DNA of 64,000 bases from Thermoguttaceae bacterium (GTDB taxonomy: Bacteria; Planctomycetota; Planctomycetia; Pirellulales; Thermoguttaceae). Both the position numbers and the translations under genes were made by a program. The number at the start of each line of letters is the position of its first letter. The first letter of the stretch is position 1. The DNA lies in contig JAXGMN010000031.1 of assembly GCA_040768665.1 (NCBI GenBank), positions 36,369 through 100,368 of the forward strand, in the 5' to 3' direction. The notes beneath the pieces were generated by a model that was not told the origin of the DNA, made no database searches, and worked only from the letters and a program-made list of their open reading frames with translations. Positions 11,719 through 55,580 of the stretch are shown here, piece after piece.

Positions 11719-11864
11719 TGGCGGTTTTGCGAAGCGCCAGCGAGGCCGCACAGCGAGTTCCCCTTGCTTGCGCAGACCCCGTGCGTGCTCCGTCCCCTGC
11801 CGTGCCAGGGAATCATTCCCCCGCCATTGCTGCTGGGTGGCGCGTGAGGTAATTTAGAGGCCCT

Positions 11865-11962: not shown

Positions 11963-12002
11963 AGAAATTTGCCCGACGGGCTGCCTCGGGAGCATTGCTG
12001 CC

Positions 12003-32691: not shown

Positions 32692-34170
32692 ATGCGATTC
32701 ACCTTGGCAACCCGGATCTCGACAGCCGTGGTCGGCGTGGTCGCACTCGCCTTGATGACGAGCGGAGTCGCGCTCTATTCGTCTCGGAATATCAACGATC
32801 TTCTGACGACAACAATCCATAAGAACCTTCCCAGTGTGAGAGCCGCGGAAGAGCTCGAAATTGCACTTTTGGAGCAGCGGGGCATGGTCGGCTCCTACAT
32901 CCTGGACGGTGGGAATCGCGAGTGGCTCGAGGGGCTTCCCGAACGGGAACTCAGCTTCCGCCACTGGCTGGATCAGGCGCGTGCTACGGCCCATACGCCG
33001 AGCGAGCACGCGATCCTCGACGATCTGATGGAGGTCTATCTCCGGTACGACGCCAAGCGCGACCGGGTGATTGAATTGTATGAAGCCGGAGAGACTTCGC
33101 AGGCGAGGGAGATCCTCCTGGGCGACGTCTATGCATTGTACCACCGTGCATATGAGCTCTGCGAGGCGTTCATCAGGGCGAACATTGACTCCGTCGACCA
33201 GTCGGTCGCCTCGGCCACCCGTCAAACGCGCGACGCCGCGCTGCTCACCGTGTTGGCGGTGGTCGTTACGACGGCATTGGGGCTGTTTCTCCTGTGGCTT
33301 TTTTTCGTCGGTGTGCTGCTTCCCCTGCGGCGGATGATCGCCGAGGCAAAGGAGTATGCCGGTGACCGCGCCGGATCCAACGGCGACGAGTTGCGTGCGA
33401 TGGGCGATTATCTGAAGCTGCTCATGTCGGACATGGCCGTGACCAGGAGCAGCCTGGAAGCGAGCGAGGCCAGGCTCTCCAGCGCGGAGAAGTTGGCTTC
33501 GGTCGGCAAGCTCGCCGCCGGCGTCGCCCACGAGATTCGGAATCCGCTCACCGCGATCAAGATGTGGCTCTATTCGATCCGCGGAAGCGTGGCGTCCGAC
33601 GCGGAACTGGACCGAAAGCTTGCCATCGTGTCCGAAGAAATCACCCGACTGGAAAACATCGTCCACGATTTCCTCGAGTTCTCGCGCCCGGCCCCGCTGA
33701 AGCTGGTCCGACACGATCTCCGCTCGATCGTCGGCACCACGTTGGATCTGCTCCGCTGCCGGTTTGAAGAGGCCGGCATTCAGCTCATCTGGGCGTTACC
33801 TCCCGAACCGGTCTGGGTATCGGCCGACTCGGAACAGCTTCGCCAGGTGCTGATCAACCTGGCAAACAACGCGATCGACGCCACGCCGGCGGGCGGCGAA
33901 GTCCGCGTGGAAGTCGGAATGGAATCGGCCGGCCAGATAGGTCCCATGGGGATAGTTCGCATGCGGGACACGGGCGGCGGAATGCCCGACGACGTCCGGG
34001 AGCAGATCTTCGACCCATTTTTCACCACTAAGGAAGGCGGGACCGGTCTCGGGCTCAGCATTGCTGCGCAGATCGTCGCTCGCCACCAGGGACGGCTCCT
34101 CTTAGAGTCCACATCGGACCGCGGCACGACGCTGTCGATCTCAATCCCTCTGGCGGAGCAAGACGGATGA
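32692..34170 (+). CDS. Sensor histidine kinase (two TM helices flanking a ~170-aa periplasmic helical sensor; HisKA + HATPase_c)
   Basis: The start is at the Met of MRFTLATRISTAVVGVVALALM, 11 nt after the SPFH stop. The ORF track begins at 32524. H-box HEIRNPLTAI. N-box NLANNAIDA. G-boxes DTGGGMP and GGTGLGLSIA. Confidence 0.85.
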   Translation: MRFTLATRISTAVVGVVALALMTSGVALYSSRNINDLLTTTIHKNLPSVRAAEELEIALLEQRGMVGSYILDGGNREWLEGLPERELSFRHWLDQARATAHTPSEHAILDDLMEVYLRYDAKRDRVIELYEAGETSQAREILLGDVYALYHRAYELCEAFIRANIDSVDQSVASATRQTRDAALLTVLAVVVTTALGLFLLWLFFVGVLLPLRRMIAEAKEYAGDRAGSNGDELRAMGDYLKLLMSDMAVTRSSLEASEARLSSAEKLASVGKLAAGVAHEIRNPLTAIKMWLYSIRGSVASDAELDRKLAIVSEEITRLENIVHDFLEFSRPAPLKLVRHDLRSIVGTTLDLLRCRFEEAGIQLIWALPPEPVWVSADSEQLRQVLINLANNAIDATPAGGEVRVEVGMESAGQIGPMGIVRMRDTGGGMPDDVREQIFDPFFTTKEGGTGLGLSIAAQIVARHQGRLLLESTSDRGTTLSISIPLAEQDG

Positions 34171-35588
34171 GCAAAATCCTCGTTGTCGACGATGAGCGGA
34201 GTGTGCTGGCGGCGTTCCACGAAATCCTCAAGGACCGGGGGCACGAGGTGGTCACGGCGACTCGTGGCGAAGAGGCTCTCGACGCCATTCAGGCCCGGGA
34301 CTTCGAGCTTGTGGTGATGGACGTTCACCTACCGGGCATCAGCGGGCTGGAGGCGCTGCGGCGGATCAAGTCGCTGCGTCCGAAGCTACCGATCATCATG
34401 ATGACGGGGCGGGGCACGATGAATACGGCCATCGAGGCGACAAAGACCGGTGCCTTTGACTACCATCTCAAGCCGCTCGATCCCGCGGAGATCCTGCGTA
34501 CGATCGATAAGGCCCTGGAAAGTTCTCGGCTCGCCAGGCAGCCGGTCGTTTTCGATACGGACGCGTCCACCGCCGGCGGTGACGCCATGATCGGCCAGAG
34601 CCCCGCCATGCAGGAGGTCTACAAGACGATCGGCCACGTCGCAGCTACGGACGCCACGGTCCTCGTCCGGGGCGAATCGGGCACCGGCAAGGAATTGGTC
34701 GCGCGGGCGGTCTATCAGCACAGCGGCCGCAGCCGGGCTCCGCTGCTGGTGGTCAATTGTGCAGCGATTCCGGAAACACTCTTGGAAAGCGAGTTGTTCG
34801 GCCACGAGCAGGGCGCATTTACCGGCGCTCAGTTCCGCCGCATCGGCAAGTTCGAGCAGGCGGACGGCGGAACGATTTTTCTCGACGAAATCGGGGATAT
34901 TCCGCTTGCGGTCCAGGCCAAGATCCTGCGGGTTCTGCAGGAGAAGACCTTTGATCGCCTGGGGAGCAACGACACTCAACGCACCGACGTGCGCGTGATC
35001 GCGGCGACAAATCGCGATCTGGACGGCGCGATTGCCCGTGGAGAGTTCCGCGAAGATCTCTATCACCGGCTCAACGTGGTCACCATCCGCCTGCCGCCGC
35101 TTCGCGAACGGCGCGAAGACATTCCCCGGCTGGTGGACTATTTCTTGGCCCGGCTGGCCGACGAACTCAAGACGCCCAAGCCCATCGTGTCGAAAGAGGC
35201 GCTGGAACTCCTGGAGGCCTATCCATGGCCGGGAAATGTCCGAGAACTCAGCCACGCGATTCAGCGTGCGATGATCTTTACCCACGGACATCCGATTCAG
35301 GCGGCGGACCTTTCGTCCGTTTTGGAGCATCGCCCCGGCGACCTCGCGCAGTCCGAACTGCTGGCCGACGACGAGCTGGCGAAGGCGCTGGTAGTGCGGT
35401 ATCTCGCCTCGCACGGCGGGGAAGGGGCTCATGAGCGGCTTCTCGGCATGGTGGAGAAACACCTGCTTGCTGAAGCACTCCGCAGGACGCAAGGCAACCA
35501 GACGCACGCCGCCCGTCTGCTCGGCCTGGCAAGGCCCACCCTCCACGCCAAGATGCAGAAACACGGCCTGCGCGAGGAGGGGATTTAG
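34167..35588 (+). CDS. Sigma-54-dependent response regulator (NtrC family: REC + AAA+ + HTH)
   Basis: 473 aa. Overlaps the kinase stop (ATGA). REC ILVVDDE. Walker A GESGTGKE. GAFTGA sigma54-contact motif. Arginine finger region. C-terminal Fis-type HTH QTHAARLLGLARPTLHAKM. Confidence 0.85.
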   Translation: MSKILVVDDERSVLAAFHEILKDRGHEVVTATRGEEALDAIQARDFELVVMDVHLPGISGLEALRRIKSLRPKLPIIMMTGRGTMNTAIEATKTGAFDYHLKPLDPAEILRTIDKALESSRLARQPVVFDTDASTAGGDAMIGQSPAMQEVYKTIGHVAATDATVLVRGESGTGKELVARAVYQHSGRSRAPLLVVNCAAIPETLLESELFGHEQGAFTGAQFRRIGKFEQADGGTIFLDEIGDIPLAVQAKILRVLQEKTFDRLGSNDTQRTDVRVIAATNRDLDGAIARGEFREDLYHRLNVVTIRLPPLRERREDIPRLVDYFLARLADELKTPKPIVSKEALELLEAYPWPGNVRELSHAIQRAMIFTHGHPIQAADLSSVLEHRPGDLAQSELLADDELAKALVVRYLASHGGEGAHERLLGMVEKHLLAEALRRTQGNQTHAARLLGLARPTLHAKMQKHGLREEGI

Positions 35589-35846
35589 ACCGCCGATGTC
35601 CGTTTCCTGACGATGCGTCAGACGCCAGACACCGACGTGACCAGAATTGTCGCATTCTGTTCACGCATTGCGGTGCGAATGTGGCACCGCTGTTCAGCTT
35701 GGTGCGATCCTGTCGGATTTCCCAACAGCGGCACGCCGCTTGCTGCCTCACTGGACCCGCTCGGTTTGACGGTCTACACGAACTGACGCGACATTCTGAC
35801 CGACTGGTCGGGGGCATCACATCAACGGAGTGAGAGGAGTAGCAGA

Positions 35847-36191: not shown

Positions 36192-36225
36192 ACGCGTGCC
36201 ATGCGCATGCCTGGAGAATGCTTCG

Positions 36226-36375
36226 ATGAGGAGAAGAGTGCTGGTCGCCGACGACAGCAGCAACATTCGCGAGTACTGCCGGGAAGTGCTCGAGCAGGCA
36301 GGCTACCACGTGGTCACCGTCAAGGACGGCGTGGAAGCACTCGAAACGATTAAGGAAGACCCTCCCGACGTTGTC
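36226..36375 (+). pseudogene. Truncated receiver (CheY-like REC) domain gene, paralog of the complete REC gene at 49868..50323
   Basis: MRRRVLVADDSSNIREYCREVLEQAGYHVVTVKDGVEALETIKEDPPDVV parallels MNTLLFADDRKNIREFCKHELEEEGYRVIVARDGREAVRLVQEEHPDLAILD. REC-like sequence stops after ~50 codons, exactly where the converging antiporter gene ends (36378). The remaining frame reads antisense of that gene. Confidence 0.55.
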
Positions 36376-36377
36376 CA

Positions 36378-38144
36378 TCACATCAGCAGCACCAACAGCC
36401 CCAGCCAGATCGACAGCAGCGCTGCCGCGAACGTCGTTCCTCGCAGCAGCCATGCCTCCACGCCCGCCGTGGCCCTCGCCATGCGGGAGACGTTGCCGCG
36501 GATCTCGCCGGCGCTTTTCCTCAACGCCTCCACGCTCGTCAGGATCTCTCGGACACCGTGCCAGGGCACCCGCAACCCTGGCCCCAAGGATTCCAGCAGC
36601 ACGACCACGTCGCCCGCGGGCACCGACACGGTCCGCCACGAGCGTCTTCGTGAAGACAGCAGCCAGAGCCCCGCGATCGCCACTCCGACCGACACGGGCC
36701 AGACCGCCGTCCAGAGCTTGGCGGGCGAGACGAGCAGGTCGGCGACCGAGACCGCGGCGCCCCAGGGCCAAAGCGGAACCGCCAGCAAGACCGCGGCCAA
36801 GAGGGCTGCCCACGGGACGAACAGACCCTTTGCCTCGTGGGCTGCGTGCGTCTCGGATCGCGGCCAGACGATCACCAGGAAACGGACCATCAAGAGGGTC
36901 GTGGCGACCGTGCCCAAGGTGAGCAGCAAGACCAACACATCCAGCCAGAAGCCGGGAGCGCCGGCGACGGCCAATTTGAGCAGGCTCTTGGCAATCGCCC
37001 CGCTGGTCAGGGGCGCTCCGGCAAGAGACAGGGCGCCGAGCAGGAGCCCCGCTGCCGTCAACCGCCGCATCCAGATCCCGTCTGCCGCGTCCGACACCGC
37101 CACCCCAAGAAACAACGCCCCCTTGGCAAGGCCATGGTGCAGCGCGAACAGAGAAACGGTCGTGACCACCACGGGCGCCGCCAGTTCGCCCGCGAGCCCC
37201 AGGCCGATGGCCGCGATCATCCAGCCCATCTGGCTCACGCTGGAATAAGCCAGCACCGTCTTGGGGTTGGTCTGCGTCAGACCGATGGCAACGCCGTAAA
37301 AAGCCCCGGCAATTCCGGCGGCAATGCACAGATGCGCCCAAGGCTCCAGGCCCGGCACTCCCAGGGGCAACAGCCGGAGCCATCCGATCAGTCCGGCTTT
37401 GATCATCGCCCCGCTGAGGACCGCACTGGCCGGCGCCGGTGCGGCGGGATGGGCCAACGGAAGCCAGAAGTGCAGCGGCAGCAAACCGGCCTTGATCCCC
37501 AGTCCCACCAGCGCCAAGGCCAGAATCAGGTCGCGTAGGGGAGACCGGGCGACGGCGGCAGGCAATCCGTCAAAGTAGGTGTTGCCCGCTGCCGCCGCGG
37601 CCAAGACGAATGCGGCGAACAGGGCCATCTCGCCCACCACCACCAGCACCAGGTAGATCCGTCCCGCGCGGATCGCTTCCTCGTCGCGGTTGTAGACTAC
37701 CAGTCCATAGGACGCGAAGCTCATCAGGGCGAAGAACGAATAGAAGCTGACCATGTCCTGGGCCACCACCAGGCCCAGATTGCCGCTCATCGCCAGGAGA
37801 TAGAAGAAGAGGAAACGGTGGCGTCGCGGATCGTGGGCCAAGTAGCTGCCCGCCGATAGCCCCGCCGTCAGCCAGAGGACCGACGTGAGGAACAGAAACG
37901 CCCGCGCGGTCTCGTCGATCCCCAACCGGCTGCCCAGCAGCAGCCAGGGGACGTCGGCTGAGATCGGACCGAGCGGCAGAACGGCGAGGATCAGCATGGG
38001 CAGGGCCGACCAGGGCGCCAACGACATCGCCCTCGCACGCCAACGGCGAATCAGCAGGCCCCAGGCGACCGCCAGCGGCAAGCCCGTGCCGAAAAGCCAG
38101 GTCAGTCCGCTCGATGCGGCCGTTTCCATCCAGCTTGGCGTCAT
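36378..38144 (-). CDS. Mrp/Mnh antiporter large subunit, MrpA/MrpD (NuoL/ND5)-like (third of three)
   Basis: The start is at the Met of MTPSWMETAASSGL, overlapping the upstream gene by 4 nt. The ORF track extends to 38591. Polytopic. Conserved GLLPLHFWLPLAHPAAPAPASAVLSGAMIKAG motif (compare [22 protein letters not shown] of NuoL/MrpA/D). Confidence 0.75.
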   Translation of the reverse strand: MTPSWMETAASSGLTWLFGTGLPLAVAWGLLIRRWRARAMSLAPWSALPMLILAVLPLGPISADVPWLLLGSRLGIDETARAFLFLTSVLWLTAGLSAGSYLAHDPRRHRFLFFYLLAMSGNLGLVVAQDMVSFYSFFALMSFASYGLVVYNRDEEAIRAGRIYLVLVVVGEMALFAAFVLAAAAAGNTYFDGLPAAVARSPLRDLILALALVGLGIKAGLLPLHFWLPLAHPAAPAPASAVLSGAMIKAGLIGWLRLLPLGVPGLEPWAHLCIAAGIAGAFYGVAIGLTQTNPKTVLAYSSVSQMGWMIAAIGLGLAGELAAPVVVTTVSLFALHHGLAKGALFLGVAVSDAADGIWMRRLTAAGLLLGALSLAGAPLTSGAIAKSLLKLAVAGAPGFWLDVLVLLLTLGTVATTLLMVRFLVIVWPRSETHAAHEAKGLFVPWAALLAAVLLAVPLWPWGAAVSVADLLVSPAKLWTAVWPVSVGVAIAGLWLLSSRRRSWRTVSVPAGDVVVLLESLGPGLRVPWHGVREILTSVEALRKSAGEIRGNVSRMARATAGVEAWLLRGTTFAAALLSIWLGLLVLLM

Positions 38145-39637
38145 AGGTTGAGTTCTCTCGTCGCGATGACTTTCGCCCAGGCCAGCGGACTGATCTCCAT
38201 GCCCGCCAGTAGTCCGACGGCCAAGGCAACCACCGCCGTGGTGACCGGCGGGACCAGAAGCCACAGTCCGACCTCCGGCCGCTCCCGTTCGCCCGTCTCC
38301 ATCGACGGCCACGGGCCGGGCCGGAACCATGCGGCGTAGAGGATCGGCAGAAAGTAGGCGGAATTGAGCAGGCTGCTGGCCACGAGGACGCCGATCACCC
38401 AGGACTGCGACGCCTCCCACGCGCCCAACGCGAGATACCACTTGGTGACGAATCCCGCCATCGGCGGCGCGCCGATCATGCCCAGCGCCCCCAGCGTAAA
38501 CGCGGCCATCGTCCAGGGCATCTGCCGCGCAACGCCGTCCATCTCGCTGACGCGGTGGATTCCCAGGCGTTCGGCCAGGTTGCCGGCGCAAAGGAAGAGC
38601 GTGATCTTCATCAAGCCCTGGTGGACCAGGTGGACTACGCCGCCGATCACGGCCAGCGGAGTTCCCATGGCCACGCCCAGGACGATGTACGAGACCTGGC
38701 TGATGGTTGAATATGCCAGCCGCTTCTTGAGATCGTCCTGCACCAGCGCCCGCAGCGATCCGTAAAGAACCGTTGCCGAGGCGATCACCGCCAGCGGCGT
38801 AAGCAGATCCAATTCGCGGGCGAACTCCAATCCGTAGACGTCGCTGACGACCCGCACGATCCCGAAGGCCCCGGCCTTGACCACGGCCACGGCGTGCAAC
38901 AGCGCGCTGACCGGCGCCGGAGCCACCATCGCTTGGGGCAGCCAGCCGTGCAGCGGCACCAGCGCCGCCTTGACGCCGAAGCCGCCAATCAGCAGTGCGA
39001 AAATGATCTTCAGCGAGGGCAGATGGCGTGCGTCCACCGTGGCCAGGACTCCCCGCTCAATGAAGGCCAGCTCGCCGGTGAGCGAATAGAGCCACGCCAC
39101 CGCAACCAGAAGCACAACGCTGGCGCTGAGCGTGTACATCAGGTAAACCCGGCCGGCGTCGAGGGCCTTCTTGGTGCCGCGATGGACGACCAGCGGATAC
39201 GTAGTTAGTGTGAGGATCTCATAGAAGACCAGGAAGGTCAGCAGGTCGCCGGCGAGGGCGATTCCCACGGTCGAACTGACGCACACGCTGAAATATCCGA
39301 AAAACCGGCTGCGGTTCGGCGAGCCTTCCAGGTAGCCGATGGCATAGACGGTCGTCACCAGCCAGAGAAAGGCCGAGAGGGTGACAAACAGCATCGGCAG
39401 AGGATCGGCGCGGAGCGTGAGGTCAAGTCCCGGCAGAAACGGCATGCTCGCCGCATAGACGTGTTCGTTAGCCACGCCCCAAAGCATGACGCACACCAGC
39501 AGGAGCTTCACGATTGCGCCGCACAGGTTGAGCACCGTTCGCAGCGCGTGAAACTCCTCACGAAGGGTGAAAATGATCAGCCCGGGTATGAGTGAGCTGA
39601 GCAACAGCAGGATAGGAAGCAAAAAGCCCCAGTTCAT
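38141..39637 (-). CDS. Mrp/Mnh antiporter subunit D (NuoL/M/N)-like (second)
   Basis: The start is at the Met of MNWGFLLPILLLL. Motif LVPLHGWLPQAMVAPAPVSALLHAVAVVKAG. 4-nt overlaps on both sides. Confidence 0.75.
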   Translation of the reverse strand: MNWGFLLPILLLLSSLIPGLIIFTLREEFHALRTVLNLCGAIVKLLLVCVMLWGVANEHVYAASMPFLPGLDLTLRADPLPMLFVTLSAFLWLVTTVYAIGYLEGSPNRSRFFGYFSVCVSSTVGIALAGDLLTFLVFYEILTLTTYPLVVHRGTKKALDAGRVYLMYTLSASVVLLVAVAWLYSLTGELAFIERGVLATVDARHLPSLKIIFALLIGGFGVKAALVPLHGWLPQAMVAPAPVSALLHAVAVVKAGAFGIVRVVSDVYGLEFARELDLLTPLAVIASATVLYGSLRALVQDDLKKRLAYSTISQVSYIVLGVAMGTPLAVIGGVVHLVHQGLMKITLFLCAGNLAERLGIHRVSEMDGVARQMPWTMAAFTLGALGMIGAPPMAGFVTKWYLALGAWEASQSWVIGVLVASSLLNSAYFLPILYAAWFRPGPWPSMETGERERPEVGLWLLVPPVTTAVVALAVGLLAGMEISPLAWAKVIATRELNL

Positions 39638-41121
39638 CGCAGGGTCTCGGCAATCGTGTCCAAAGGAAGCGGGGCTGCGATTTCGAGGAGGTCGGCCAGA
39701 GGCGCCGCGGCCATTCCCAGTAGGGCGGCGGTGACTCCCAAGGCGACGGCAGCCGCGTCCATCCGCCAGGGACGCGGCGGGCCTTCCGCCTCCTGGTCTT
39801 CGGCAGCCATCATCGCCCGGCTCCAGAATCGGAACAAGTAGCCGGCCGTCAGAAGTCCTCCGGCGACAATGGCGACTGCCCATCCCCACTGCCCGCTCTG
39901 AATGGCCGCGGTGAGCATCATCCACTTCCCGGCAAACCCGCCGCTGGGCGGCAGGCCCATCAGGCTGACGCTGGCCAGGGCGAAGGCGGTCACCGGCCCC
40001 GGGAGTCGCTGTCCGATTCCTATCAGTCCATCAAGACGGTCGTGCCCCGCCGCGTTCTGAATCGAGCCGGTCGCCAGGAAGATGGCCGCCTTGGCCAGGG
40101 CGTGGGAGAGGGCGATGCAAACGGCTCCGGCCAGCGCGAGTTGCCGCATGCCGGGCAACGACACCAGCGGGAACATGAGAAACAGGTAGCCCAACTGCGC
40201 CACGGTCGAGTAGGCAACCAGCAGTTTCAACCGCTCGGCCCGAAACGCTTGAATCGATCCCCAGACGATCGCCCCGGCGCCGAGCAGGCCCAGCAGTTGC
40301 CCGCCCTCGGAGAGCGTCGCTGCCGGAAACACCTCCAGCCACAGCCGCACGATCATATAAAAAGCCCCCTTCACGACTAGCGCCGACAGCAGGGCGCTGA
40401 CCGGGGCGGGCGCGTTGGCGTGGGCTGGCGGCAGCCAGAAGTGCAGCGGGAATAGGGCGGCTTTGATCAGCAAGCCCGCAACCATCATCGCCGCCGCCAT
40501 CTGGCCGCGAGGCTCGGCGGCGAGCCTCGCGCCGAGCGCCGCCAGGTCGAGGACGCCAAATGCTCCGTACAACAGCGCAACGCCCATCAGGTACAAAAGC
40601 GAGCCGAGCAGTCCCACGATCAGGTACCGCAGGGCAGCGACGATCGCTTCGGTGGTGCCGGCCAGAGCGATCAGCCCGATCGACGCCAGCGTGAGCAGTT
40701 CCAGCGTCACGTAGAGGTTGAAGACGTCGGCCGAGAGGAACAGCGCATTGAGCGACGCCCAGAGCAGAAAGAACAGCGGCCAGAACGTGCCCGCCGTCTC
40801 GTCCGCCCCCTGGTGCGCCCCGCCGCGGAAATAACCCGGGGCATAGAAGGCCACGGCCGATCCGACCACGGTGGTGGCCATCAGCATGACCAGCGACAGG
40901 CCGTCGGCGTAGAGTTCGATGCCCAGCGGGCTCCCCCAGCCACCCAGCGCATAACGAATGGGGCCATGCAGGATCACTTGCCGGCCCAGGCCAAGTAACA
41001 GTGCGGCCATCCCCAGCGGCGCGGCGACGGCAAGCAGGTTCACCAACCGCCGCCCGCCGAGATACGCAATCAGGCCGAGCGCCAAAGGCAGTGTGATCAG
41101 GCCCACGCCCCAATGGTCCAT
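39634..41121 (-). CDS. Mrp/Mnh antiporter subunit D (NuoN/ND2)-like (first)
   Basis: 495 aa. MDHWGVGLITLPLALGLIAYLGG. Motif LFPLHFWLPPAHANAPAPVSALLSALVVKGAF. Confidence 0.75.
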   Translation of the reverse strand: MDHWGVGLITLPLALGLIAYLGGRRLVNLLAVAAPLGMAALLLGLGRQVILHGPIRYALGGWGSPLGIELYADGLSLVMLMATTVVGSAVAFYAPGYFRGGAHQGADETAGTFWPLFFLLWASLNALFLSADVFNLYVTLELLTLASIGLIALAGTTEAIVAALRYLIVGLLGSLLYLMGVALLYGAFGVLDLAALGARLAAEPRGQMAAAMMVAGLLIKAALFPLHFWLPPAHANAPAPVSALLSALVVKGAFYMIVRLWLEVFPAATLSEGGQLLGLLGAGAIVWGSIQAFRAERLKLLVAYSTVAQLGYLFLMFPLVSLPGMRQLALAGAVCIALSHALAKAAIFLATGSIQNAAGHDRLDGLIGIGQRLPGPVTAFALASVSLMGLPPSGGFAGKWMMLTAAIQSGQWGWAVAIVAGGLLTAGYLFRFWSRAMMAAEDQEAEGPPRPWRMDAAAVALGVTAALLGMAAAPLADLLEIAAPLPLDTIAETLR

Positions 41122-41192
41122 GTCAGCCGCTCCTCTCGTTGTGCGGTTTCGCCGCGCGGCTTTCCCTTCCGGCCGAAGGCTCGCCGCGATCT

Positions 41193-41522
41193 TCAGGAAA
41201 AGTGGTCTCTCCCGTCACCGCGTGCAGGCGGCAGATCAGGGCCAGGGCCAAGGCGGTTGCGGCGGACGGCCACCACAATCCCGGTTAACACCAGCGCGTG
41301 CGGCACCGGATCCGGCAGAATTTTCTCCGCGGCAAGTTGCAGCCGGCTGGGATAGGCCAGCGCCACCAGCAGCATGAACACGCCGGTGCCCATCACGTTC
41401 AACGCGAGCACTTTGCGGACCAACTGCGAGAGCACCAAGGCCCCGAACAGCCCGATCCCAAAAAGCGCCACCGCCACCAGGCTGTAGAGCACGGCCGGAT
41501 TCATGTTCGGTTCTCCTGTCAA
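41193..41522 (-). CDS. Mrp/Mnh antiporter subunit C (NuoK-like)
   Basis: MNPAVLYSLVAVALFGIGLFGALVLSQLVRKVLALNVMGTGVFMLLV. Small 3-TM NuoK/MnhC pattern. The start may be the internal Met at 41504. Confidence 0.7.
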   Translation of the reverse strand: MTGEPNMNPAVLYSLVAVALFGIGLFGALVLSQLVRKVLALNVMGTGVFMLLVALAYPSRLQLAAEKILPDPVPHALVLTGIVVAVRRNRLGPGPDLPPARGDGRDHFS

Positions 41523-41527
41523 GAAAT

Positions 41528-41615
41528 GGTACCAATGGGCGACAGAAGTAGGTTCCGCTTGCCGAGCGGGCCCATTGGGGCGAGGTCCCGCTCGGCAAGC
41601 GGGACCTACCGGTGG
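41528..41615. repeat. Full copy of the intergenic palindromic repeat family, lodged between mnhB-like and mnhC. It supplies the mnhB-like stop codon.
   Basis: Nested inverted repeats. ACCAATGGGC pairs with GCCCATTGG. GTAGGTTCCGCTTGCCGAGCGGG (41548-41570) pairs with CCCGCTCGGCAAGCGGGACCTAC (41587-41609; 22 of 23). Tail CGGTGG as in the 31185 copy. Confidence 0.55.
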
Positions 41616-42364
41616 TCATCCTTCTCCTCATTCTCTCGGAAATCTTGGTGCCGCTGGCGGCCCGATTGGCCCGATAGCACGCCGGCTAGCAGGACGATGA
41701 AAATGGCGCCCACCGAGAGCATCGCCGCGGCCTCGATCACGAGGATCCACGCCTTGGCTGATTCCGCAGGGTATTCCAGAAAACGCCTGCCCGCGGCGAG
41801 CATTCCCAGACCGATGCCCCCGAACGTCGCCAGGCCCAGAATCACGGCGACGTGCAGTTTGCGGCCGCGGAACCAGCGGGCGACCGGGGCTCCGGCCAGC
41901 AACAGCAGCACGCCGCCGCCGCCCAGCGCCGCACCCGCCTGAAAAGCCCCGCCGGGCCGGTCGGCACCGATCCACAGCAGGTATCCGGCCACCAGCACGA
42001 CGATCGGCACCACGGCCGCCGCCAGGGCCGCCAGCAACGGTGGCGGGGCGGCCGGCGCGGCGGCGAACCAGTCCTGCCGCCACACCGCCTGAACGCCCAT
42101 CGCCGCCAGCACGAGGACCGCGACTTCCAGCAGCGTGTCGTAGGCGCGGAAGTTAAGCAGCACCCCCGTCACCGGATTCGAAACGCCGCCGGCGGCCACG
42201 AGTCCTTGTCTCGCGTCGCTATCCTGAAAGCGGGCCGTCAGACCGGCCGGTTGCTCCGGCAGCGTCAGCACGCTCCAGGCCACCATTCCGCTGAGCGTCG
42301 CCGTCAAGGCGGCCGCAGCCAACGTGCCCGGCGTTGCCCGCAGCGGCAGATCGTTTGTCCTCAT
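41606..42364 (-). CDS. MnhB-domain protein (MbhE-like) fused to an MrpB-like region
   Basis: NPVTGVLLNFRAYDTLLEVAVLVL (MnhB domain signature). Downstream GADRPGGAFQAG (compare MrpB AGHxxPGGGFxGG) plus TM helices. The true start is probably internal (Met of MVAWS, ~42286). The last ~25 codons and the stop lie in the repeat element. Confidence 0.6.
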   Translation of the reverse strand: MRTNDLPLRATPGTLAAAALTATLSGMVAWSVLTLPEQPAGLTARFQDSDARQGLVAAGGVSNPVTGVLLNFRAYDTLLEVAVLVLAAMGVQAVWRQDWFAAAPAAPPPLLAALAAAVVPIVVLVAGYLLWIGADRPGGAFQAGAALGGGGVLLLLAGAPVARWFRGRKLHVAVILGLATFGGIGLGMLAAGRRFLEYPAESAKAWILVIEAAAMLSVGAIFIVLLAGVLSGQSGRQRHQDFRENEEKDDHR

Positions 42365-43220: not shown

Positions 43221-43813
43221 GGGGAAATATCCAGTCCGTATAAGGCGGCCACTGCCAATTCCAGTTTCCGAAGTTGCTCTTCGAACGGTCCGCCGACGTT
43301 TAGGGCGTGTACGAGGATCCGGTCGGACTGGAAGTCGGCGGTGAGTGTTCCGGGCAACAGGCTCGTCGTGCTGGCGAAAAGCCATCGCGGGGTGCCCGGC
43401 GGCAACCGCATCGAATAGACGCAGAAGCCGGGCTTCAGCGGCAGGTCTCCCGGAGTCATCGCGCGGCGGGCCACGTCGGCGCCGGCGACCAATGAGCTTT
43501 TCAGGAAAAAGGCGACGAACCGGATCATTCCGATCAACCGCCAGCGGAATTTCGGCAACGGCCTCAGCCAAAAGCTCATCACGACCGCAGCGAGAACCGC
43601 CGGGCCGCCAACGATCCAGGAGGCGGCCTCGCCCGAGGTCAGGCCGAGCCAGATGAGAGCGAACATCGCAATGCGGAGGGCCGCGTGGAGGATCTGCTCC
43701 AGGACTTCTTTCGGCGCTCGTTGTGCTGCCACGGCTTCCTCCGCTCCCGCCCATGCAGGCAACGCCCTCCGTGGCGTTCCGCGGAGGACGGGTGGTCGTC
43801 TTGCTTCCCTCAT
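43217..43813 (-). CDS. Mrp/Mnh antiporter subunit E
   Basis: C-terminal PGTLTADFQSDRILVHALNV...EEQLRKLE fits the MnhE signature (PGTLSvD...L.vH.ld). Start uncertain. The ORF track extends to 43891 and a non-ATG start is possible. Confidence 0.6.
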   Translation of the reverse strand: MREARRPPVLRGTPRRALPAWAGAEEAVAAQRAPKEVLEQILHAALRIAMFALIWLGLTSGEAASWIVGGPAVLAAVVMSFWLRPLPKFRWRLIGMIRFVAFFLKSSLVAGADVARRAMTPGDLPLKPGFCVYSMRLPPGTPRWLFASTTSLLPGTLTADFQSDRILVHALNVGGPFEEQLRKLELAVAALYGLDISP

Positions 43814-43927
43814 GCGGAACACCACGGAGGACGTTCCGTACAGCCTGTGTACCCTGGACGCCGAACGCATGCAGCGTCGATCCCCGGGCACTCATCACTC
43901 CCCCGACGCCTGGTCTCTAGGTCCAGG

Positions 43928-45092
43928 TCACGTTTCCCCGCCAGAGAGGATGACGCCCGCGGATGTCGGCCTCCACCTGCCTCCACCAGAGCGCTTCCAC
44001 GATCTGTTTTGCCGTGTCGCTGCACTCTCGGGCGCGCTCGGAGTCGCCCAGCCGCTGGTAAGCCTCGGCGAGCCCCTCCCAGGCCGGCGCGTACACGCGA
44101 TCGGTTTCAATGCAGTGCTGAAATTCCCGGCGGGCCTCTTCGGGCAGCCCCTTTTCCAGGAGTTCTTCGCCGAGTTTGAAGTGGGATCGGACATCGGCGA
44201 TCTCCTCGTCGATCCGCAGCCGAATGGCGTTTTCCGCCTTGAAGCTAAGCAGAGAGCAAGGCATCGCACTGGCGACCCGGCCGGTCACGTGACCCAGCAG
44301 GATACGCGTGAACCCGGTCTTCGCCCCCGAACCCATGACCAGCAGTTTCGCCGCGATTCTCTCGGCTGCGGCAAGGATTTCCGCCGGAGGATCTCCCAGC
44401 CGCACTTCCTTCTCCCAACGGACATTGTGGAAATCGAATTGTCCCAAGAACGCCTCGAAACGACGCCGCTGGTCTTCCTCGTAGGCATTCTGCGCCTCCT
44501 GGCTGACTAGGCCGGAAAACGACCAGAACGTGGTTACCGGCTGAATCACCGTGAGCACCGTAAGCCTGGCGTCGAGATTCCTTGCCAAGTGGATGGCATT
44601 GCTCAACGCGCGGCGCGAAGGAGCGGAGAAGTCAACCGCGCAGACGATCGAATCCAGCGAGACCGGCTGCCCCGGCTTCACGACCCACACCGGTTTGGCC
44701 GAGTGGCGGAGGACTCGCTCCGCCGTGAGGCCCAGGGCCGATGGATCGTCACCGCCCGCGCTGCGGGCGATCACGATCACGTTGGCATCGCGCTCGTTGG
44801 CCTGGCGGAGAATGCCCTCGAAATCGCTGCCCTCCTCGACAATCGGCTCGGCCATCCTCACCCCTTCCCCCCGCAACTTCGAGGCAAGCTCGTTCAGTCG
44901 TTCGAGACTCCTCTCACGGGCCAGTCGCATGACCAGCGCGGCATCCGAAAGCCCCTCCGGCGCCGGTGGAAGCACGTTCAACAGCAGCACCTCGGACTGA
45001 AACGTCCGGCCGAGCGCCGATGCGGTGGCCAGCACGTCGTCGACGCCGGTTTGGAAGTCGGTGGCGACAAGTATTGTTTGCATAAGTCTCAT
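43928..45092 (-). CDS. Tandem universal stress protein (UspA x2) with C-terminal TPR-like helical region
   Basis: Two Usp units. ILVATDFQTG...VIVIARSAGGDDPSALGLTAERVLRHSAKPVWVV and IVCAVDFSAPS...LLVMGSGAKTGFTRILLGHVTGRVASAMPCSLL. The tail WEGLAEAYQRLGDSERARE is TPR-like. Confidence 0.75.
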
Positions 45093-45660: not shown

Positions 45661-47507
<1,847 letters not shown>

Positions 47508-47534
47508 TCTGTTATCACTTCACTCACGACCGCC

Positions 47535-48410
47535 ATGATCACATCCGACGAACGGCCTGCCACGGCGCCGCCGGCTCCGACCATTACGCTCGACGCCTAC
47601 TCGCCGGAGCAGATCGCGGAGCGCGTGGAACGCCAGGGCGTATACAAGAGCAGATTGCCGCCGTTCACCATGACGATGCTGGCGATCGTGGGAGGGGGAT
47701 TCATTGGCCTCGGCGCGATGTTCCAAATCGCCGTCCTCGCCGATCCCGACCTGAACGCCGGATGGAGCCGCATGATCGGCGGTGTGGCATTTGCCACGGG
47801 CTACCTGATCGCCATGACCGCCGGCGCCGAAGTGTTCACCTCGAACAACCTCACTGTGATGAGTTGGGCAGCCCGCAAACTCAGCACCATGCGGCTCCTG
47901 CAGAGTTGGCTCGTCGTGCTGCTGGGCAACGCCGTGGGAGCCGGCGGACTGGCCCTGGTCATCGTTCTTTCCGGGCACATGGCCATGCACGAGGGAGCCG
48001 TGGGGCGGGTCGCAGTTCAGATCGCGGCGGCGAAGGGCTCGGAATCCTTCCTCTACGCCTTTTTCGGCGGGATTATCGGTAACCTGCTCATCTGCGTCGC
48101 CGTTTGGATCGCCATGGCGGGGCGATCGGTCACGGACAAGTTTTTCGCGCCGCTTCTGCCGATTGCCGCCCTGTCGATCGGAGGCTTCGAGCACTGCGTG
48201 GGCAACATTTACTACATGTGCAGCGGCCTGCTCACCGTGGCTGTGCAGCCGGGGCTGTATCCAGACGGCAGCGCACTCGACACCTGGCGCGCCATGCACA
48301 ACCTGTTTGCAGTCACCTGCGGAAACATCTTCGGCGGGGGAGTGATGGTCGCGTTGGTCTACCACGTGATCTATCGCCGCTTGGTCGAGCAATGGAGCGA
48401 CCCGTCGTAG
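47535..48410 (+). CDS. Formate/nitrite transporter family (FNT: FocA/NirC-like) channel
   Basis: 291 aa, 6 TM. The characteristic FNT loops FATGYLIAMTAGAEVFTSNN and GGFEHCVGNIYYM are present (compare AGAELFTGN and FEHSIANMY). Confidence 0.8.
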   Translation: MITSDERPATAPPAPTITLDAYSPEQIAERVERQGVYKSRLPPFTMTMLAIVGGGFIGLGAMFQIAVLADPDLNAGWSRMIGGVAFATGYLIAMTAGAEVFTSNNLTVMSWAARKLSTMRLLQSWLVVLLGNAVGAGGLALVIVLSGHMAMHEGAVGRVAVQIAAAKGSESFLYAFFGGIIGNLLICVAVWIAMAGRSVTDKFFAPLLPIAALSIGGFEHCVGNIYYMCSGLLTVAVQPGLYPDGSALDTWRAMHNLFAVTCGNIFGGGVMVALVYHVIYRRLVEQWSDPS

Positions 48411-48566
48411 AGAGGCCGCGGGATGAATCGCCGTTCACGCCTCCTTAGCCTCCAGTAGTTGCTGAGGTGGCCGGCCTTGGCGTCGCCCAGCAGGAAGATC
48501 GTCTTCGACTTTTTGGAGAGCGGGTTTTCCACGACGGAATACCCCGGCCGGTCGCCTTACGATCTG

Positions 48567-49406
48567 TCACATCCCAACAAAGAGAGGGCAATCTGCATTC
48601 CGGATAATATGCAGCATTGTAGTTTCACGAAGAATCTTCGCAAGCCAACTGTCCGCACTGGAGCCTAACACCACCATGTCCGCGTCCCATTCGGCAGCCT
48701 CAGCCAGGATTTCCTCTTTCGGATCTCCCGGCCGATACCGGGTCTCCGGCTCGTAACCGTGAGCCCGGCAGTAAACGACCGCATCGGTCAACATCGGTTT
48801 CGCCTGATCCTCCGGATGGCCGCAAACGAGAATCCGCAGCATCGCGCTTGGCCAAAGTCGAAAACGCATAAACTGCTGCATCGATTCGGCAGATTGCACG
48901 GAACCGCTGTAGGCCACCAGCACGCGGCGAACTGGGCGGACCCGATTGGAGACCGCGATCAGGGGTCGCACGCCTCCCTCAATCAACTCCCGAAGGAACC
49001 TTGCCGGTTCCACGTCGGAGTCACCGAGGATCTTGTACTCAAACATGCTTCTCAGTCCGAATACGGCCAAGTCGTGGTAGCGAGCATATTCGATCATCAG
49101 GTGGAACGGGCTCCCTTGCTCGCGATAGATCGTGATGGGCACGCCCTGATCACTGCAGTGCTGCTTCAGCACGTCAAGCGAGTCTTCAATTTGTTCCCGA
49201 GTGACCTCGAGACGATCTTCGCACAAATCCGCCATCGCGACGGCGCTCTCCAACGGAACGCGCCCAACGCGACAGATGCGGCTCTCATCAAGCACGGTCA
49301 CGGCCGTCAGGCTCGCACCGCTCCGTCGTGCGATCTCGACGGCGAACTGAATGGCGACACCGGAGAACGGCGTGCCGCCAATTCCCAGCAGAATTCGACG
49401 GATCAT
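48567..49406 (-). CDS. Tandem universal stress protein (UspA x2)
   Basis: 279 aa. ILLGIGGTPFS...LAVFGLRS and RVLVAYSGSVQS...MVVLGSSADSWLAKILRETTMLHIIRNADCPLFV. Confidence 0.75.
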   Translation of the reverse strand: MIRRILLGIGGTPFSGVAIQFAVEIARRSGASLTAVTVLDESRICRVGRVPLESAVAMADLCEDRLEVTREQIEDSLDVLKQHCSDQGVPITIYREQGSPFHLMIEYARYHDLAVFGLRSMFEYKILGDSDVEPARFLRELIEGGVRPLIAVSNRVRPVRRVLVAYSGSVQSAESMQQFMRFRLWPSAMLRILVCGHPEDQAKPMLTDAVVYCRAHGYEPETRYRPGDPKEEILAEAAEWDADMVVLGSSADSWLAKILRETTMLHIIRNADCPLFVGM

Positions 49407-49834
49407 GACTCACACCTCCTTCTGACCTCAATATCGACCTTCAGTTGTTCGGGGCGGTCCGAGCGTGATGCGTTGAGCACCTCCATGGCAGCGGAATATG
49501 CCAACTGGCGGTCATAGTGCGACCTGGAATAGCCCTGCACGATCACCTGTCCCTCCAAGGTCTCGATGCGCAAGGAGCTAATTCGATCGCGGGTTCGCAG
49601 GCGAATCCGACGCTCCAGGCGTTGCGCGAAATCAGTGCGACTGCCATTCGCGTGCGACGCCGAAGGACCAGGTTCGGCTGTCTGCTCCAGTATCTCCCGG
49701 CGATGCACGGGGACATCGAACGGCGCCGATATCCCCAGGCGGACTCTCTTCCCGCCTACGGCCACGACGCCGATCGTCACGCCATGCTTGGGCAGTACGA
49801 TTTCTTCCCCTGTCTTGCGGCTAAAAACGAGCAT
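49403..49834 (-). CDS. CsrA/RsmA-like RNA-binding protein with ~90-aa C-terminal extension
   Basis: The N-terminal 55 aa MLVFSRKTGEEIVLPKHGVTIGVVAVGGKRVRLGISAPFDVPVHRREI align with CsrA (MLILTRRVGE..I.IGD.V.VTVL.V.GNQVRIG..AP..V.VHREEI). It is then 143 aa long instead of ~65. ATGA overlap with the downstream usp gene. Confidence 0.65.
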   Translation of the reverse strand: MLVFSRKTGEEIVLPKHGVTIGVVAVGGKRVRLGISAPFDVPVHRREILEQTAEPGPSASHANGSRTDFAQRLERRIRLRTRDRISSLRIETLEGQVIVQGYSRSHYDRQLAYSAAMEVLNASRSDRPEQLKVDIEVRRRCES

Positions 49835-49867
49835 CGTTGCTACTCCTTCTCCATGTGACTTGGTCTC

Positions 49868-50323
49868 TTAACGGCTCTGGGCCTGTGCGCCTTCCTCCGT
49901 TGTGGGCCAATCTCCCACGTGCGGCATCCGAGGCGGCAATCCCGAGCGAAAAACGTCGTTGGCTTCGCGGTTAGACAGAAGCCTGACGACCGTCCGTTTT
50001 AACTCACCCAGATCCTCGCTTTTCTCGACGCAGGCGTTCGCAAACCGACTCCGTGAGTCAGTAACACAATCCTCGTCGTTGGCCGTGAAGAAGATGATCG
50101 GGATGGCCGGGTCGATGGCCTTGATCCGCTCCACGGCTTCGAGGCCGCCCGCTCTGGGCATACAGATGTCCAGAATCGCCAGGTCGGGATGTTCCTCCTG
50201 TACCAAGCGAACGGCTTCTCGTCCGTCTCGTGCAACGATCACCCGGTAGCCTTCTTCCTCCAATTCGTGCTTGCAGAACTCGCGTATGTTCTTCCTGTCA
50301 TCAGCGAACAGAAGCGTATTCAT
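49868..50323 (-). CDS. Stand-alone response-regulator receiver (CheY-like) protein
   Basis: 151 aa. LFADDRKNIRE (phospho-acceptor acidic pair context). LAILDICMP (Asp). IIFFTAND (Thr). Lys region. No output domain. Confidence 0.8.
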   Translation of the reverse strand: MNTLLFADDRKNIREFCKHELEEEGYRVIVARDGREAVRLVQEEHPDLAILDICMPRAGGLEAVERIKAIDPAIPIIFFTANDEDCVTDSRSRFANACVEKSEDLGELKRTVVRLLSNREANDVFRSGLPPRMPHVGDWPTTEEGAQAQSR

Positions 50324-50738
50324 CGTTTGCCAGCCTTATTGTCGTAGTGCCCTCTGCCTTGCTTCTCTTGCGACGCACGAGGCTTTGGAGTACCAGGTAA
50401 GCGCCGTCGTCTGCCGCCAGAACCGACACGAGCAATTCGACCTGCGCCTAGCTCGGCGTGTAATCGCCCATCCACTCCGTCCGTTGCTCGTGAAAACCTT
50501 CGTGTCGCATGGCACGGTGCCGCCGTCTTGGGCAAGTCAGTTAAGAATTCTCCTCGATGGTTTGTTCTGAGGCCGGACACGATTGAGGGCAATTTGCGTG
50601 CCGCAACCGGGAGTGAGTCGGGTCGCGGCACCGCAAGTCGTTCACGGCCAACAAGATAATCTCGCCGGCTCCGGAGACTACCGGGGCACGGAACTGCGAT
50701 AAACGTCCGCTACTCGACCGCGCGTCAGGAACCTGGCA

Positions 50739-51290
50739 CTAACCCTGCGCGCTCCCGCCCTCGCCGTGAAGGCGGTGCTTCTGCATCTTCGCGTGAAGCG
50801 TCGGACGAGGTATGCCCAGCAGTCGGGCGGCGTGGGTTTGGTTCCCCTTGGCCCGGCGTAGGGCCTCGGTCAGAAGCAGCTTTTCGACCTTTCCAAGGAA
50901 TTGGTCGTAAGCTCGCGGACCGTCGTGCGAGCTGAGATAGCGCCATACCACCTCGGCCAGCGTCTCGTCGTCTTTGGCAAACGGCTCGCTCGCCCTCCCC
51001 TCATCCACAGGCTCAAAGAGCGAACGCAAATCCGCCGCTTGGATGGCATGACCGCGCGTAAAAATCATCGTGCGGTGGATGCAGTGCTGAAGTTCCCTCA
51101 CGTTCCCGGGCCAGGGATGACTCTTAAGTAATTCCAAGGCGTCCTCGGAGAGCACAGGTCTGTCGGCGCCCAGTTCTTCCGCAAAGCGATTCAAGAAGAG
51201 ATCGACCAACTTCGGAATGTCTTCCTTGCGCTCCCGAATCGGAGGAATGTGGATGGTCGCCACGTTCAGCCGGTCCGATCGTCTTCTGGA
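50739..51290 (-). pseudogene. Remnant C-terminal third of an NtrC-family sigma54 regulator (paralog of 34167..35588), lacking REC and Walker motifs
   Basis: ...RLNVATIHIPPIRERKEDIPKLVDLFLNRFAEEL...WPGNVRELQHCIHRTMIF...GNQTHAARLLGIPRPTLHAKMQKH aligns with residues ~300-473 of the intact regulator at ~60% identity. No upstream REC or AAA+ sequence is present. Confidence 0.65.
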
Positions 51291-52188
51291 TCGAGAACAA
51301 CCACATCTTGATCGCCGTGAGCGGATTGCGCAGCTCGTGGGCCACGCTGGCCGCCAGCTTTCCTACCGAGGCCAGTTTCTCCGCACTCATCAAGCGTCTC
51401 CTGGTCTGTTCCAGCACGGCACGCCCGCTGCTCACCTCCGACATCAGGGTTCGCAGGTATTCACCCACAGCCTGCAACTCATCCTCTTGCGTTCCAACGC
51501 CCTTCGAAGTCGTACAACCTGCCGCCGCGCGCGCCTCGGCGGCAATGCTCCGCAGGGGAAGGACCACACCGCGGAGAAACAGCCAAAGCAGCCCCATTCC
51601 GATCGCGATGGTCGCGCTGACGAAGGCTGCCGCCAGCCACGTCGCCGACCTGATTCGGCGAGCCCCAGTTTCAATTGCCGCATCGACAAAACGCTCGTTG
51701 GCGGCAATGACATCTCTGCAGAGGGAGAACGCTCGCTCGTAGAGGTCCGCCAGGTCATGCACCAAAATCATTGTGGCTTCCGTTGCCTCACCCCTATCAT
51801 AGAGCGACAACATTTCATCCCGCTTGGCATCGTAGTCGTGATAGACGTGATCCAAATCCCGCATTAAGGCCGCTTCTTCCGGCGTGTGTGCGGTCGATTG
51901 CGCCAGACCCAGCCACTTGTCGAACTCGGCTTTCCAGCGATGCAATTCCCGCAAATGATCGGGCCTACCGCGATCCAGGATATACGCGGACACGATCGCC
52001 CCCTGTCGCAGGAACGCGATTTCCAGTTCGTTGGCGGCGCGCACGCTGGACGCGTTGTTGGTGAGCACCTCTTGCATCAGGTTTCCGACCGCCCACATCG
52101 ACAGTAGCGTCAGAAGGCTGCTGGCTGCCGCCAGGGCAACGACCCCTATGATGGCTATTGAAAACCTGGTCCCCAGTGTAAGTCGCAT
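51124..52188 (-). pseudogene. Remnant N-terminal part of a sensor histidine kinase (paralog of 32692..34170): TM-sensor-TM-HAMP-like-H-box, no ATPase domain
   Basis: MRLTLGTRFSIAIIGVVALAA...SVRAANELEIAFLRQGAIVSAYILD...HELRNPLTAIKMWLFSIQKT, then non-kinase sequence. About 55% identical to the intact kinase through the H-box. A +1 frame change at ~51280-51290 joins it to the regulator remnant. Confidence 0.65.
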
Positions 52189-52528
52189 GAGACACCTCCA
52201 GCCCACGGATAGCTAAACCTTGGCGGCTGTGGTGCGTCCCAAGCGTGCCGCGAGGGAACCGCCAATCTGTGTAATCTAAACCAGGCAGCCCAGCCAAGCG
52301 AAGCCCTTCCTGGTGGCACTTGGTCCTGTGCCACCACGAAGGTGAGCACTACCGCGACGGGTTGAACATACACAAAAATCGTTTCATTCAAGAATGTCTT
52401 CGGACCTGCAGGTTCCGAGAACAGCCTGCCTTGATCGTGCGTACCGGTTATGGAGAGATCTTGCCACGCTGGCCGGCTATGCGCTGAATATTCCTGGAAC
52501 CAGTTCTCACAGTTCGTATCGTGGGCCC

Positions 52529-55574: not shown

Positions 55575-55580
55575 AGGCTT

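Follow-up and report, generated by a model that had tools for sequence, protein, structure and literature searches.

A 64,000-nucleotide (nt) stretch of a Thermoguttaceae genome (contig JAXGMN010000031.1; hereafter the window, in whose positions all coordinates are given) carries two incomplete signalling loci in inverted orientation, one on each side of a stress island, and it raises the question of how two damaged versions of one regulatory module came to lie in the same region. A preliminary description of this DNA had answered that an inverted segmental duplication was followed by reciprocal decay of the two copies; as a whole, that answer is only partly right. We consider it very probable that the two loci are anciently diverged paralogues (or xenologues) of one cassette, each bearing one recent structural lesion, and that what is seen is ordinary turnover, with no decayed local duplication. 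This confidence covers the structural and evolutionary account, while regulation of one copy by the other is graded separately below. Domains were identified with Pfam, pairwise identities were obtained with BLASTP, remnants were searched for with tblastn and ortholog families were assessed with NCBIfam; synteny comparisons consisted of protein searches followed by inspection of the neighbourhoods of the matching contigs. Related loci are numbered L001 to L021 and related proteins P0001 onwards.

The composition first reported for both copies was confirmed. On the plus strand, copy 1 (32692-36375) possesses, from Pfam and the listing of open reading frames (ORFs), an intact histidine kinase (HK1), an intact NtrC-type regulator (RR1), an FHA protein and a cut receiver gene (REC1). 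HK1 is identical to protein P0001 and matches HisKA (E 4.6e-13) and HATPase_c (E 5.6e-26); its orthologues in other assemblies, P0002 (79% identity), P0003 (72%) and P0004/5 (65%), are all 492-496 amino acids (aa) long. RR1 matches Response_reg (E 9e-30), Sigma54_activat (E 6e-73) and HTH_8 (E 5e-14), its translation shows the GAFTGA motif, and it shares 87% identity with its L001 counterpart across 472 aa. REC1 is a gene remnant, truncated with respect to the receivers of L001 and L019: its alignment with these and with the copy-2 receiver breaks off at ...PDVV (~36375), before the phospho-acceptor Asp. The SPFH gene that precedes HK1 is a conserved upstream partner of the copy-1 cassette, and in L018 an SPFH protein 84% identical in amino acids is also encoded 10 nt from the kinase.

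On the minus strand, copy 2 (52188-49868) retains, according to Pfam and tblastn, a kinase sensor with its H-box (HK2'), the C-terminal part of a regulator (RR2') and an intact receiver (REC2), with no FHA gene. The HK2' ORF (52188-51124) encodes 4HB_MCP_1 and the first 28 positions of HisKA (positions 3-30), with no HATPase_c; after the sensor part it continues for 50 out-of-frame codons to a stop at 51124, and it is annotated at NCBI as the 354-aa protein P0121. Its orthologues P0122 and P0123 are intact at 498 aa; by BLASTP it is 80-82% identical to them, and 85-88% where the sensor regions align. RR2', 89-92% identical in nucleotides to L002/L003, is without REC and ATPase domains, while REC2 has the same length as its L002 and L003 orthologues. 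Behind REC2, at spacings of a 33-nt gap or a 4-nt overlap, follow a CsrA-BON fusion gene and a gene with two Usp domains (Usp279). CsrA-BON is 85% identical in amino acids to the L002 orthologue and scores 59.8 bits against PF02599 (gathering score 27), and it falls below the NCBIfam equivalog cut-off (52 vs 73); Usp279, whose overlap with the CsrA-BON stop is 4 nt, shares 79% amino acid identity with the L003 orthologue. The losses are indeed complementary: kinase and regulator survive only in copy 1, receiver and CsrA only in copy 2.

BLASTP of kinase, regulator and receiver confirms the homology of the two inverted cassettes, at an identity slightly lower overall than the ~55-60% first given at the protein level. 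The regulators agree with that figure (60% over 169 aa, E 1e-68), but the kinases (49% over 304 aa, E 2e-86) and the receivers (47% over 45 aa, E 2e-15) fall below it. An inverted duplication in situ, followed by reciprocal degeneration to one working copy per component (duplication-degeneration-complementation), would explain the common gene order, the inverted orientation and the complementary losses. The relatives make this origin very improbable. Separate orthologues of each copy, 79-92% identical in nucleotides, lie elsewhere in different neighbourhoods, and each copy is far closer to these than to its partner; when 160 neighbours of HK1 were ranked by identity on a MAFFT alignment, HK2' came at position 113. 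Between the copies there is no repeat at the nucleotide level, their DNA being 66-82% identical in patches, with a longest exact shared word of 15 nt. The copies are ~50% identical in protein, yet the lesions are younger than the split from relatives whose DNA is 88-92% identical. Nor does the FHA gene appear to have been lost from copy 2, as had been supposed: the cassette orders of the relatives show FHA in loci of the copy-1 type and never in those of the copy-2 type, and it is therefore best regarded as a component confined to the copy-1 lineage. A tblastn search detected neither residual FHA sequence in copy 2 nor additional copies of the cassette elsewhere in the window.

The idea that copy 2 belonged to a local ancestral arrangement was likewise not supported. 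In L016, which derives from the same sample as L001, the genes DUF2238-baeRF-Usp/TPR-Mrp are contiguous; the window has 8.8 kb between baeRF and DUF2238, and this block, absent from L016, holds the whole of copy 2. Its G+C content is 0.602 against 0.633 in the flanks and the rest of the window, it is lower at third codon positions too, and L002/L003 have 0.60-0.61. No integration-site signature was found: neither an integrase nor terminal repeats were seen in 46810-55580, and there is no tRNA in the window. Copy 2 may have arrived within this block by insertion or transfer. Coordinates of all the features are collected in the table.

Table. Features of the two cassettes and of the region between them (window coordinates).
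Feature	Position	Strand	Evidence and remarks
SPFH/Band-7 gene	31320..32681	+	Pfam Band_7_1 E 1.7e-61; ends 10 nt 5' of HK1 start codon
HK1, intact 4HB_MCP-sensor histidine kinase, 492 aa	32692..34170	+	Pfam 4HB_MCP_1, HisKA, HATPase_c
RR1, intact NtrC-family sigma-54 activator, 473 aa	34167..35588	+	Response_reg, Sigma54_activat, AAA_lid_14, HTH_8
Two tandem GTCAG-N4-CTGAC palindromes, 19 nt apart, candidate upstream activator sequences	35598..35630	+	Just 3' of RR1 stop
Candidate sigma-54 -24/-12 promoter CGGCACGCCGCTTGCT	35729..35744	+	10/11 consensus positions, best match of the window; 102 nt 5' of FHA gene
FHA-domain protein, 114 aa	35847..36191	+	Pfam FHA E 5.5e-10
REC1 remnant, first 50 codons of single-domain receiver	36226..36375	+	Response_reg positions 1-46 of 111 only
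Rearrangement junction CATCA, direct repeat at 36381-36385	36376..36380		Three-way DNA comparison with L001, L016 and L017
Terminal Mrp (Proton_antipo_M) gene, 588 aa, intact	36378..38144	-	Pfam; exact protein P0169
Remaining Mrp-like cluster: MrpE/F, G, MbhD, MbhE/MnhB, NuoK-like, two more Proton_antipo_M; preceded by Usp-Usp-TPR gene	38141..45092	-	Pfam
Lower-G+C block, 8.8 kb	46810..55580		Usp153, FNT, Usp279, CsrA-BON, REC2, RR2', HK2', 4HB-SpoIIE, M50 peptidase
Usp279, two Usp domains	48567..49406	-	Pfam; last gene of copy-2 output operon
CsrA-BON fusion, 143 aa	49403..49834	-	Pfam CsrA E 2.6e-16, weak BON match
REC2, intact single-domain receiver, 151 aa	49868..50323	-	Response_reg positions 2-109 of 111
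Candidate sigma-54 -24/-12 promoter CGGCACGCAAATTGCC	50588..50603	-	9/11; upstream of REC2-CsrA-BON-Usp279
Palindrome of GTCAGG-N2-CCTGAC type, one mismatch, candidate upstream activator sequence	50724..50737	-	Directly 3' of RR2' stop
RR2' remnant, last ~176 regulator codons	50739..51272	-	AAA_lid_14 and HTH_8 only; ORF 51263-50739
Deletion junction, 5-bp microhomology ACCGG	51271..51275	-	Side-by-side comparison with L002
HK2' remnant: 4HB sensor, transmembrane region, H-box half of HisKA, ~304 codons	51276..52188	-	Pfam

The lesion of copy 2 could be reconstructed from L002 and L003, which have full kinase and regulator genes and are 88-92% identical to copy 2 in nucleotides. The window aligns to L002 positions 9864-10922 and resumes at 12388-13110, and likewise in L003; 1,465 bp (L002 positions 10923-12387) are missing, the frame is shifted, and ACCGG is present at both ends of the deleted segment in the intact orthologous locus. 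The deletion takes kinase residues ~309-498, with DHp helix 2 and the ATPase domain, and regulator residues 1-~299, with the receiver and AAA+ domains. The truncations first described are real differences from intact orthologues (L002/L003 for HK2' and RR2', L001/L019 for REC1). The word decay, in the sense of gradual degeneration, does not describe them, since there were just two structural events, both clean, and the remnants carry neither secondary stops nor secondary frameshifts. On the branch leading to the window, nonsynonymous and synonymous changes stand at 18:19 in the kinase stub and 3:3 in the regulator stub, small counts that are similar to those of the L002 and L003 branches; because they resemble the intact branches and secondary stops are missing, the deletion in copy 2 appears to be recent. 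We also considered a recurrent truncated form of the kinase (P0127, P0128, P0130 and P0154), and rejected it: the ends differ and the tails are frameshifted, so that these proteins do not share the deletion.

The lesion of copy 1 is of another kind. Receiver homology ends at ~36375 and mrp homology begins at 36381, with five bases between, so that the receiver of copy 1 is joined within ~5 nt to the last codon of a convergent mrp gene, whose frame is spared. On the mrp side, L017 (92% nucleotide identity) and L016 (84%) match the window as far as 36381 and then continue into a Na_H_Exchanger/TrkA_C gene, which follows mrp in these two nearest relatives and is absent from the window. The terminal Mrp protein ends in ...LLVLLM* here and in ...LLVLLMRS* in L017, and its relatives P0170 (94% identity) and P0171 (82%) are full length, with 589 and 590 aa. 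A simple replacement model, in which the 453-aa gene downstream of mrp in L016 was tested as the SPFH gene, was discarded, the two being unrelated. On the plus strand, nothing resembling a terminator was detected from the receiver stub to 37200, and transcription from the candidate promoter at 35729 could possibly now enter the 3' end of the convergent mrp operon.

Concerning the other genomes, the kinase family is large (more than 7,000 matches at E<=1e-20), and the few named sources of these matches include Pirellulales, Thermoguttaceae and other Planctomycetota. The order is HK-RR-FHA-REC-169 aa-CsrA in L019/L020 (Thermoguttaceae), SPFH-HK-RR-FHA in L018, HK-RR-(FHA remnant)-REC-CsrA-BON in L001, HK-RR-REC-CsrA (141 aa) in L002 and HK-RR-CsrA-REC-Usp genes-PLD-Mrp in L003. 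Orthologous FHA genes are thus present in L018, L019 and L020, and a remnant in L001. The cassette is one that often decays or is remodelled, as further independent losses in the relatives indicate: L021 (8837-11017) has its own deletion of ~2.9 kb, which begins in the C-terminal part of the kinase and reaches past CsrA, together with a frameshift; L003 (~9805-9950) has a frameshift in the kinase sensor, possibly a sequencing error; L001 (7306-7425) keeps a stub of FHA; and in L018 (5622-5700) neither receiver nor CsrA follows FHA. The state of the CsrA/BON fusion also varies, the two being fused in the window and in L002 (141 aa), while CsrA is short (75 aa) in L003 and L019, and L001 (8116-8765) has a separate 88-aa csrA with, behind it, a 95-aa gene that by eye resembles BON.

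From these comparisons, the cassette, which is widespread in Planctomycetota, has as its parts a membrane kinase with a periplasmic 4HB_MCP sensor, an NtrC-family sigma-54 activator, a regulatory part with two candidate activator-binding palindromes and a candidate sigma-54 promoter immediately 3' of the activator gene, and an output operon. The operon carries the genes of a single-domain receiver and of a CsrA-type RNA-binding protein, to which the copy-1 lineage adds FHA and the copy-2 lineage Usp. On this account the two copies did not originate by duplication at this locus, copy 2 having probably come in the 8.8 kb block. One lesion is a deletion of 1,465 bp mediated by the ACCGG microhomology, leaving two stubs out of frame in copy 2; the other is a breakpoint that fused receiver codon 50 to the last mrp codon and removed the rest of the receiver, whatever followed it (CsrA in the relatives) and the Na+/H+ exchanger gene after mrp.

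The regulatory part was sought with a sigma-54 scan (consensus TGGCAC-N5-TTGCW, scored over 11 positions). It had been proposed that the kinase and regulator might control the whole island, but good sites were found only downstream of each regulator gene, with none comparable upstream of mrp, baeRF, Usp153, FNT or the kinases. In eight loci, GTCAG-N4-CTGAC palindromes, single or in pairs spaced by 19 nt, are present in the first 45 nt past the regulator stop, and in seven of the eight the highest-scoring -24/-12 site (8-11 of 11) begins 135-146 nt past that stop. The palindrome pair of copy 1 recurs at the same offset in L018, L019 and L020, and the L018 promoter site is a perfect match, TGGCACGCGGCTTGCT. 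The L002 counterpart of the site at 50603 is TGGCACGCAAATTGCC, at the same offset (+135), and the imperfect palindrome of copy 2 is perfect in L002 and L001. The exception is L001, with only a weak -24/-12 match (7/11) further downstream. This arrangement suggests, judging from sequence, that the phosphorylated regulator binds the palindromes and activates the downstream FHA/receiver/CsrA operon from the sigma-54 promoter; the target of copy 1 would be FHA and the receiver, and that of copy 2 would be REC2-CsrA-BON-Usp279.

What, then, might become of an output operon that has lost its own kinase and regulator? The HTH_8 helix reads ...GNQTHAARLLG(L/I)(A/P)RPTLHAKMQKH... in both RR1 and RR2', and kinase H-box/alpha-1 and receiver alpha-1 segments are similar between the two lineages. 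Since the helices and palindromes are nearly alike and the H-box/alpha-1 and receiver alpha-1 segments similar, cross-talk from HK1-RR1 to the promoter and receiver of copy 2 is plausible, and if true it would make the complementary losses tolerable. We hold it as a tentative and somewhat doubtful proposal that HK1-RR1 cross-regulates the orphaned REC2-CsrA-BON-Usp279 operon of copy 2 as well as FHA. The fuller version, a working hybrid circuit in which HK1 and RR1 serve the other cassette's promoter and its receiver/CsrA-BON/Usp operon, and in which the RR2' stub might also act as a small Fis-like competitor at the shared palindromes, we judge to be unlikely. RR2' has a possible GTG start at 51263, and Fis is thought to derive from the C-terminal domain of NtrC. 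Another view is that two unrelated neutral losses took place, that the operon of copy 2 is silent or orphaned, that copy 1 controls FHA only and that the complementarity is a coincidence. The independent losses of FHA in L001, of receiver and CsrA in L018, of regulator, receiver and CsrA in L021, and the kinase frameshift of L003 speak for such a view. It has to reckon with the intactness of REC2, CsrA-BON and Usp279, which keep a coding-like composition and 79-89% identity to their orthologues, with the retained sigma-54 promoter of copy 2 and its palindrome with one mismatch, and with the almost identical DNA-binding helices of the two regulators, although expression is not proven by any of these. 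We regard coincidental neutral loss as a real possibility that falls somewhat short of an even chance.

Several points weigh against our own account and have to be set beside the evidence for it. Both lesions come from a single contig of a metagenome-assembled genome; the junction-bearing proteins, P0121 in copy 2 and P0169 on the copy-1 side, have each been seen once, in one contig; and a search for both exact junction sequences in the JGI metagenome collection gave 0 matches. The copy-1 event could be a deletion, an inversion or a translocation, with the missing receiver half, CsrA and the exchanger perhaps elsewhere in the genome. The polarity of the 8.8 kb difference, insertion here versus deletion in L016, is indicated by G+C content and by nothing else. 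In addition, sigma-54-like matches across the window are at chance level (12 observed vs ~14 in shuffles), so that positional conservation is the sole support of the two candidate sites, and control of the copy-2 operon by HK1-RR1 is inferred. The uniqueness of the junctions would fit an artefact of assembly or binning, in which chimeric joins or collapsed variants hide an intact genome, and related long-read contigs do contain likely frameshift errors, such as the one in the L003 kinase sensor. Such an artefact is nevertheless very unlikely, because neither junction has a repeat by which an assembler could be misled (the longest word common to the copies is that of 15 nt), the junction of copy 2 has the 5-bp microhomology of a genuine deletion, and that of copy 1 keeps the mrp frame to within two codons, which suggests selection acting on a real event; comparable, real-looking deletions are also present in the relatives. 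The account of diverged cassettes with one lesion each is thus the one that we retain.

Compared with characterised systems, HK1-RR1 is a generic pair of the NtrB/NtrC class, with a HisKA and HATPase_c kinase, a REC, AAA+ and HTH_8 regulator, and a candidate -24/-12 promoter with palindromes. It has the same kinase core as NtrB/NtrC, AtoS/AtoC and ZraS/ZraR; the best NCBIfam matches are AtoS and ZraS for HK1 and NtrC, AtoC and ZraR for RR1, all scoring below their equivalog cut-offs (ntrC 495.8 vs 558.6, AtoC 449.5 vs 714, ZraR 423 vs 760, AtoS 224 vs 646). It differs from that class in its sensor, a periplasmic 4HB_MCP bundle, and in its apparent target, the adjoining downstream operon of a receiver and a CsrA homologue. 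To our knowledge, no characterised system has such wiring from an activator to an adjacent operon for a receiver and a CsrA homologue, and a literature search on the cassette in Planctomycetes found nothing specific.

The BarA/UvrY (GacS/GacA)-Csr/Rsm circuits likewise link a two-component system to CsrA. There the regulator drives small RNAs that sequester CsrA (PMC4682653). In the window, by contrast, it is the csrA-like gene itself that a sigma-54 activator appears to drive, and a BON domain is fused to this gene or comes after it; Rfam detected no RNA family over 31000-56500, Csr/Rsm small RNAs included. The cassette also resembles, by architecture only, branched pathways with an extra receiver (phosphate-sink or CheY-like connector): behind a single kinase gene come two proteins with receiver domains, namely a DNA-binding regulator and a stand-alone receiver. 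From cassette to cassette, the alpha-1 regions of the receivers resemble one another. As for the lesion of copy 2, it has the 5-bp direct repeats, the frameshift and the intact state in relatives that are typical of microhomology-mediated deletion in ordinary pseudogenisation, and the sole oddity is that the lesions of two paralogous cassettes are complementary.

A few observations concern the neighbours of these genes. Divergent from HK2', a SpoIIE/PP2C phosphatase gene (52394-53947, plus strand), which the preliminary description had omitted, bears a third copy of the 4HB_MCP sensor, 43% identical to the HK1 sensor and 39% to that of HK2'; through this common sensor one signal may feed both the kinase and the phosphatase pathways. 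The FHA protein of copy 1 has, by eye, GS and DPLH in place of the canonical phosphothreonine-binding GR and SxxH, and it scores equally well against the Yop-YscD cytoplasmic-domain model and FHA; phosphothreonine binding may be absent.

Pfam largely bears out what had been said of the island: the nine-gene Mrp-like cluster, the baeRF family 3 (eRF1-like) gene, FNT and CsrA-BON are all present, and it is only the five Usp genes that turn out to be three genes with five Usp domains. The cluster at 38141-45092 is collinear with L016 at 84-87% nucleotide identity. The baeRF gene (45661-46809, plus strand) is divergent from the adjoining Usp/TPR-Mrp operon, an adjacency kept in L016 (912-2063), where the intergenic region is 223 nt long against 537 nt in the window, with no alignment between them. 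At the edge of the low-G+C block lies an ORF of 113 aa (46775-47116, plus strand), possibly part of a broken gene, whose only match is a weak one to the C-terminal end of a HAD/Hydrolase_3 fold. An intergenic repeat of REP-like type, GTAGGTCCCGCTTGCC, is present at six places (23007, 26810, 31189, 31245, 41548 and 41593) against 0.3 expected, including one 26-nt inverted pair inside the mrp cluster (41548-41609). When the terminal Mrp protein (cluster 36378-43898, minus strand) was compared with GTDB representative genomes, a search limited to loci with exact peptides in common, the matches L004-L015 were all from Proteobacteria/Syntrophaceae, at 43-52%, and within that limit no planctomycete synteny was found; these matches hint at the origin of the Mrp cluster, as a lead and no result.

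Taken by itself, the rearrangement belongs to the routine turnover of genomes, here in a planctomycete assembled from a metagenome. What the comparison defines beyond it is a conserved, uncharacterised cassette, present in thousands of Planctomycetota and related sequences, which, if it works as inferred, would connect a two-component system to a CsrA-type regulator directly at the level of transcription. Should the surviving halves of the two copies cooperate, the locus would show two paralogous two-component pathways, of a kind normally insulated from each other, cross-wired in nature, and the hybrid circuit, if true, would be a natural snapshot of how pathways are rewired by reciprocal loss between old paralogues.

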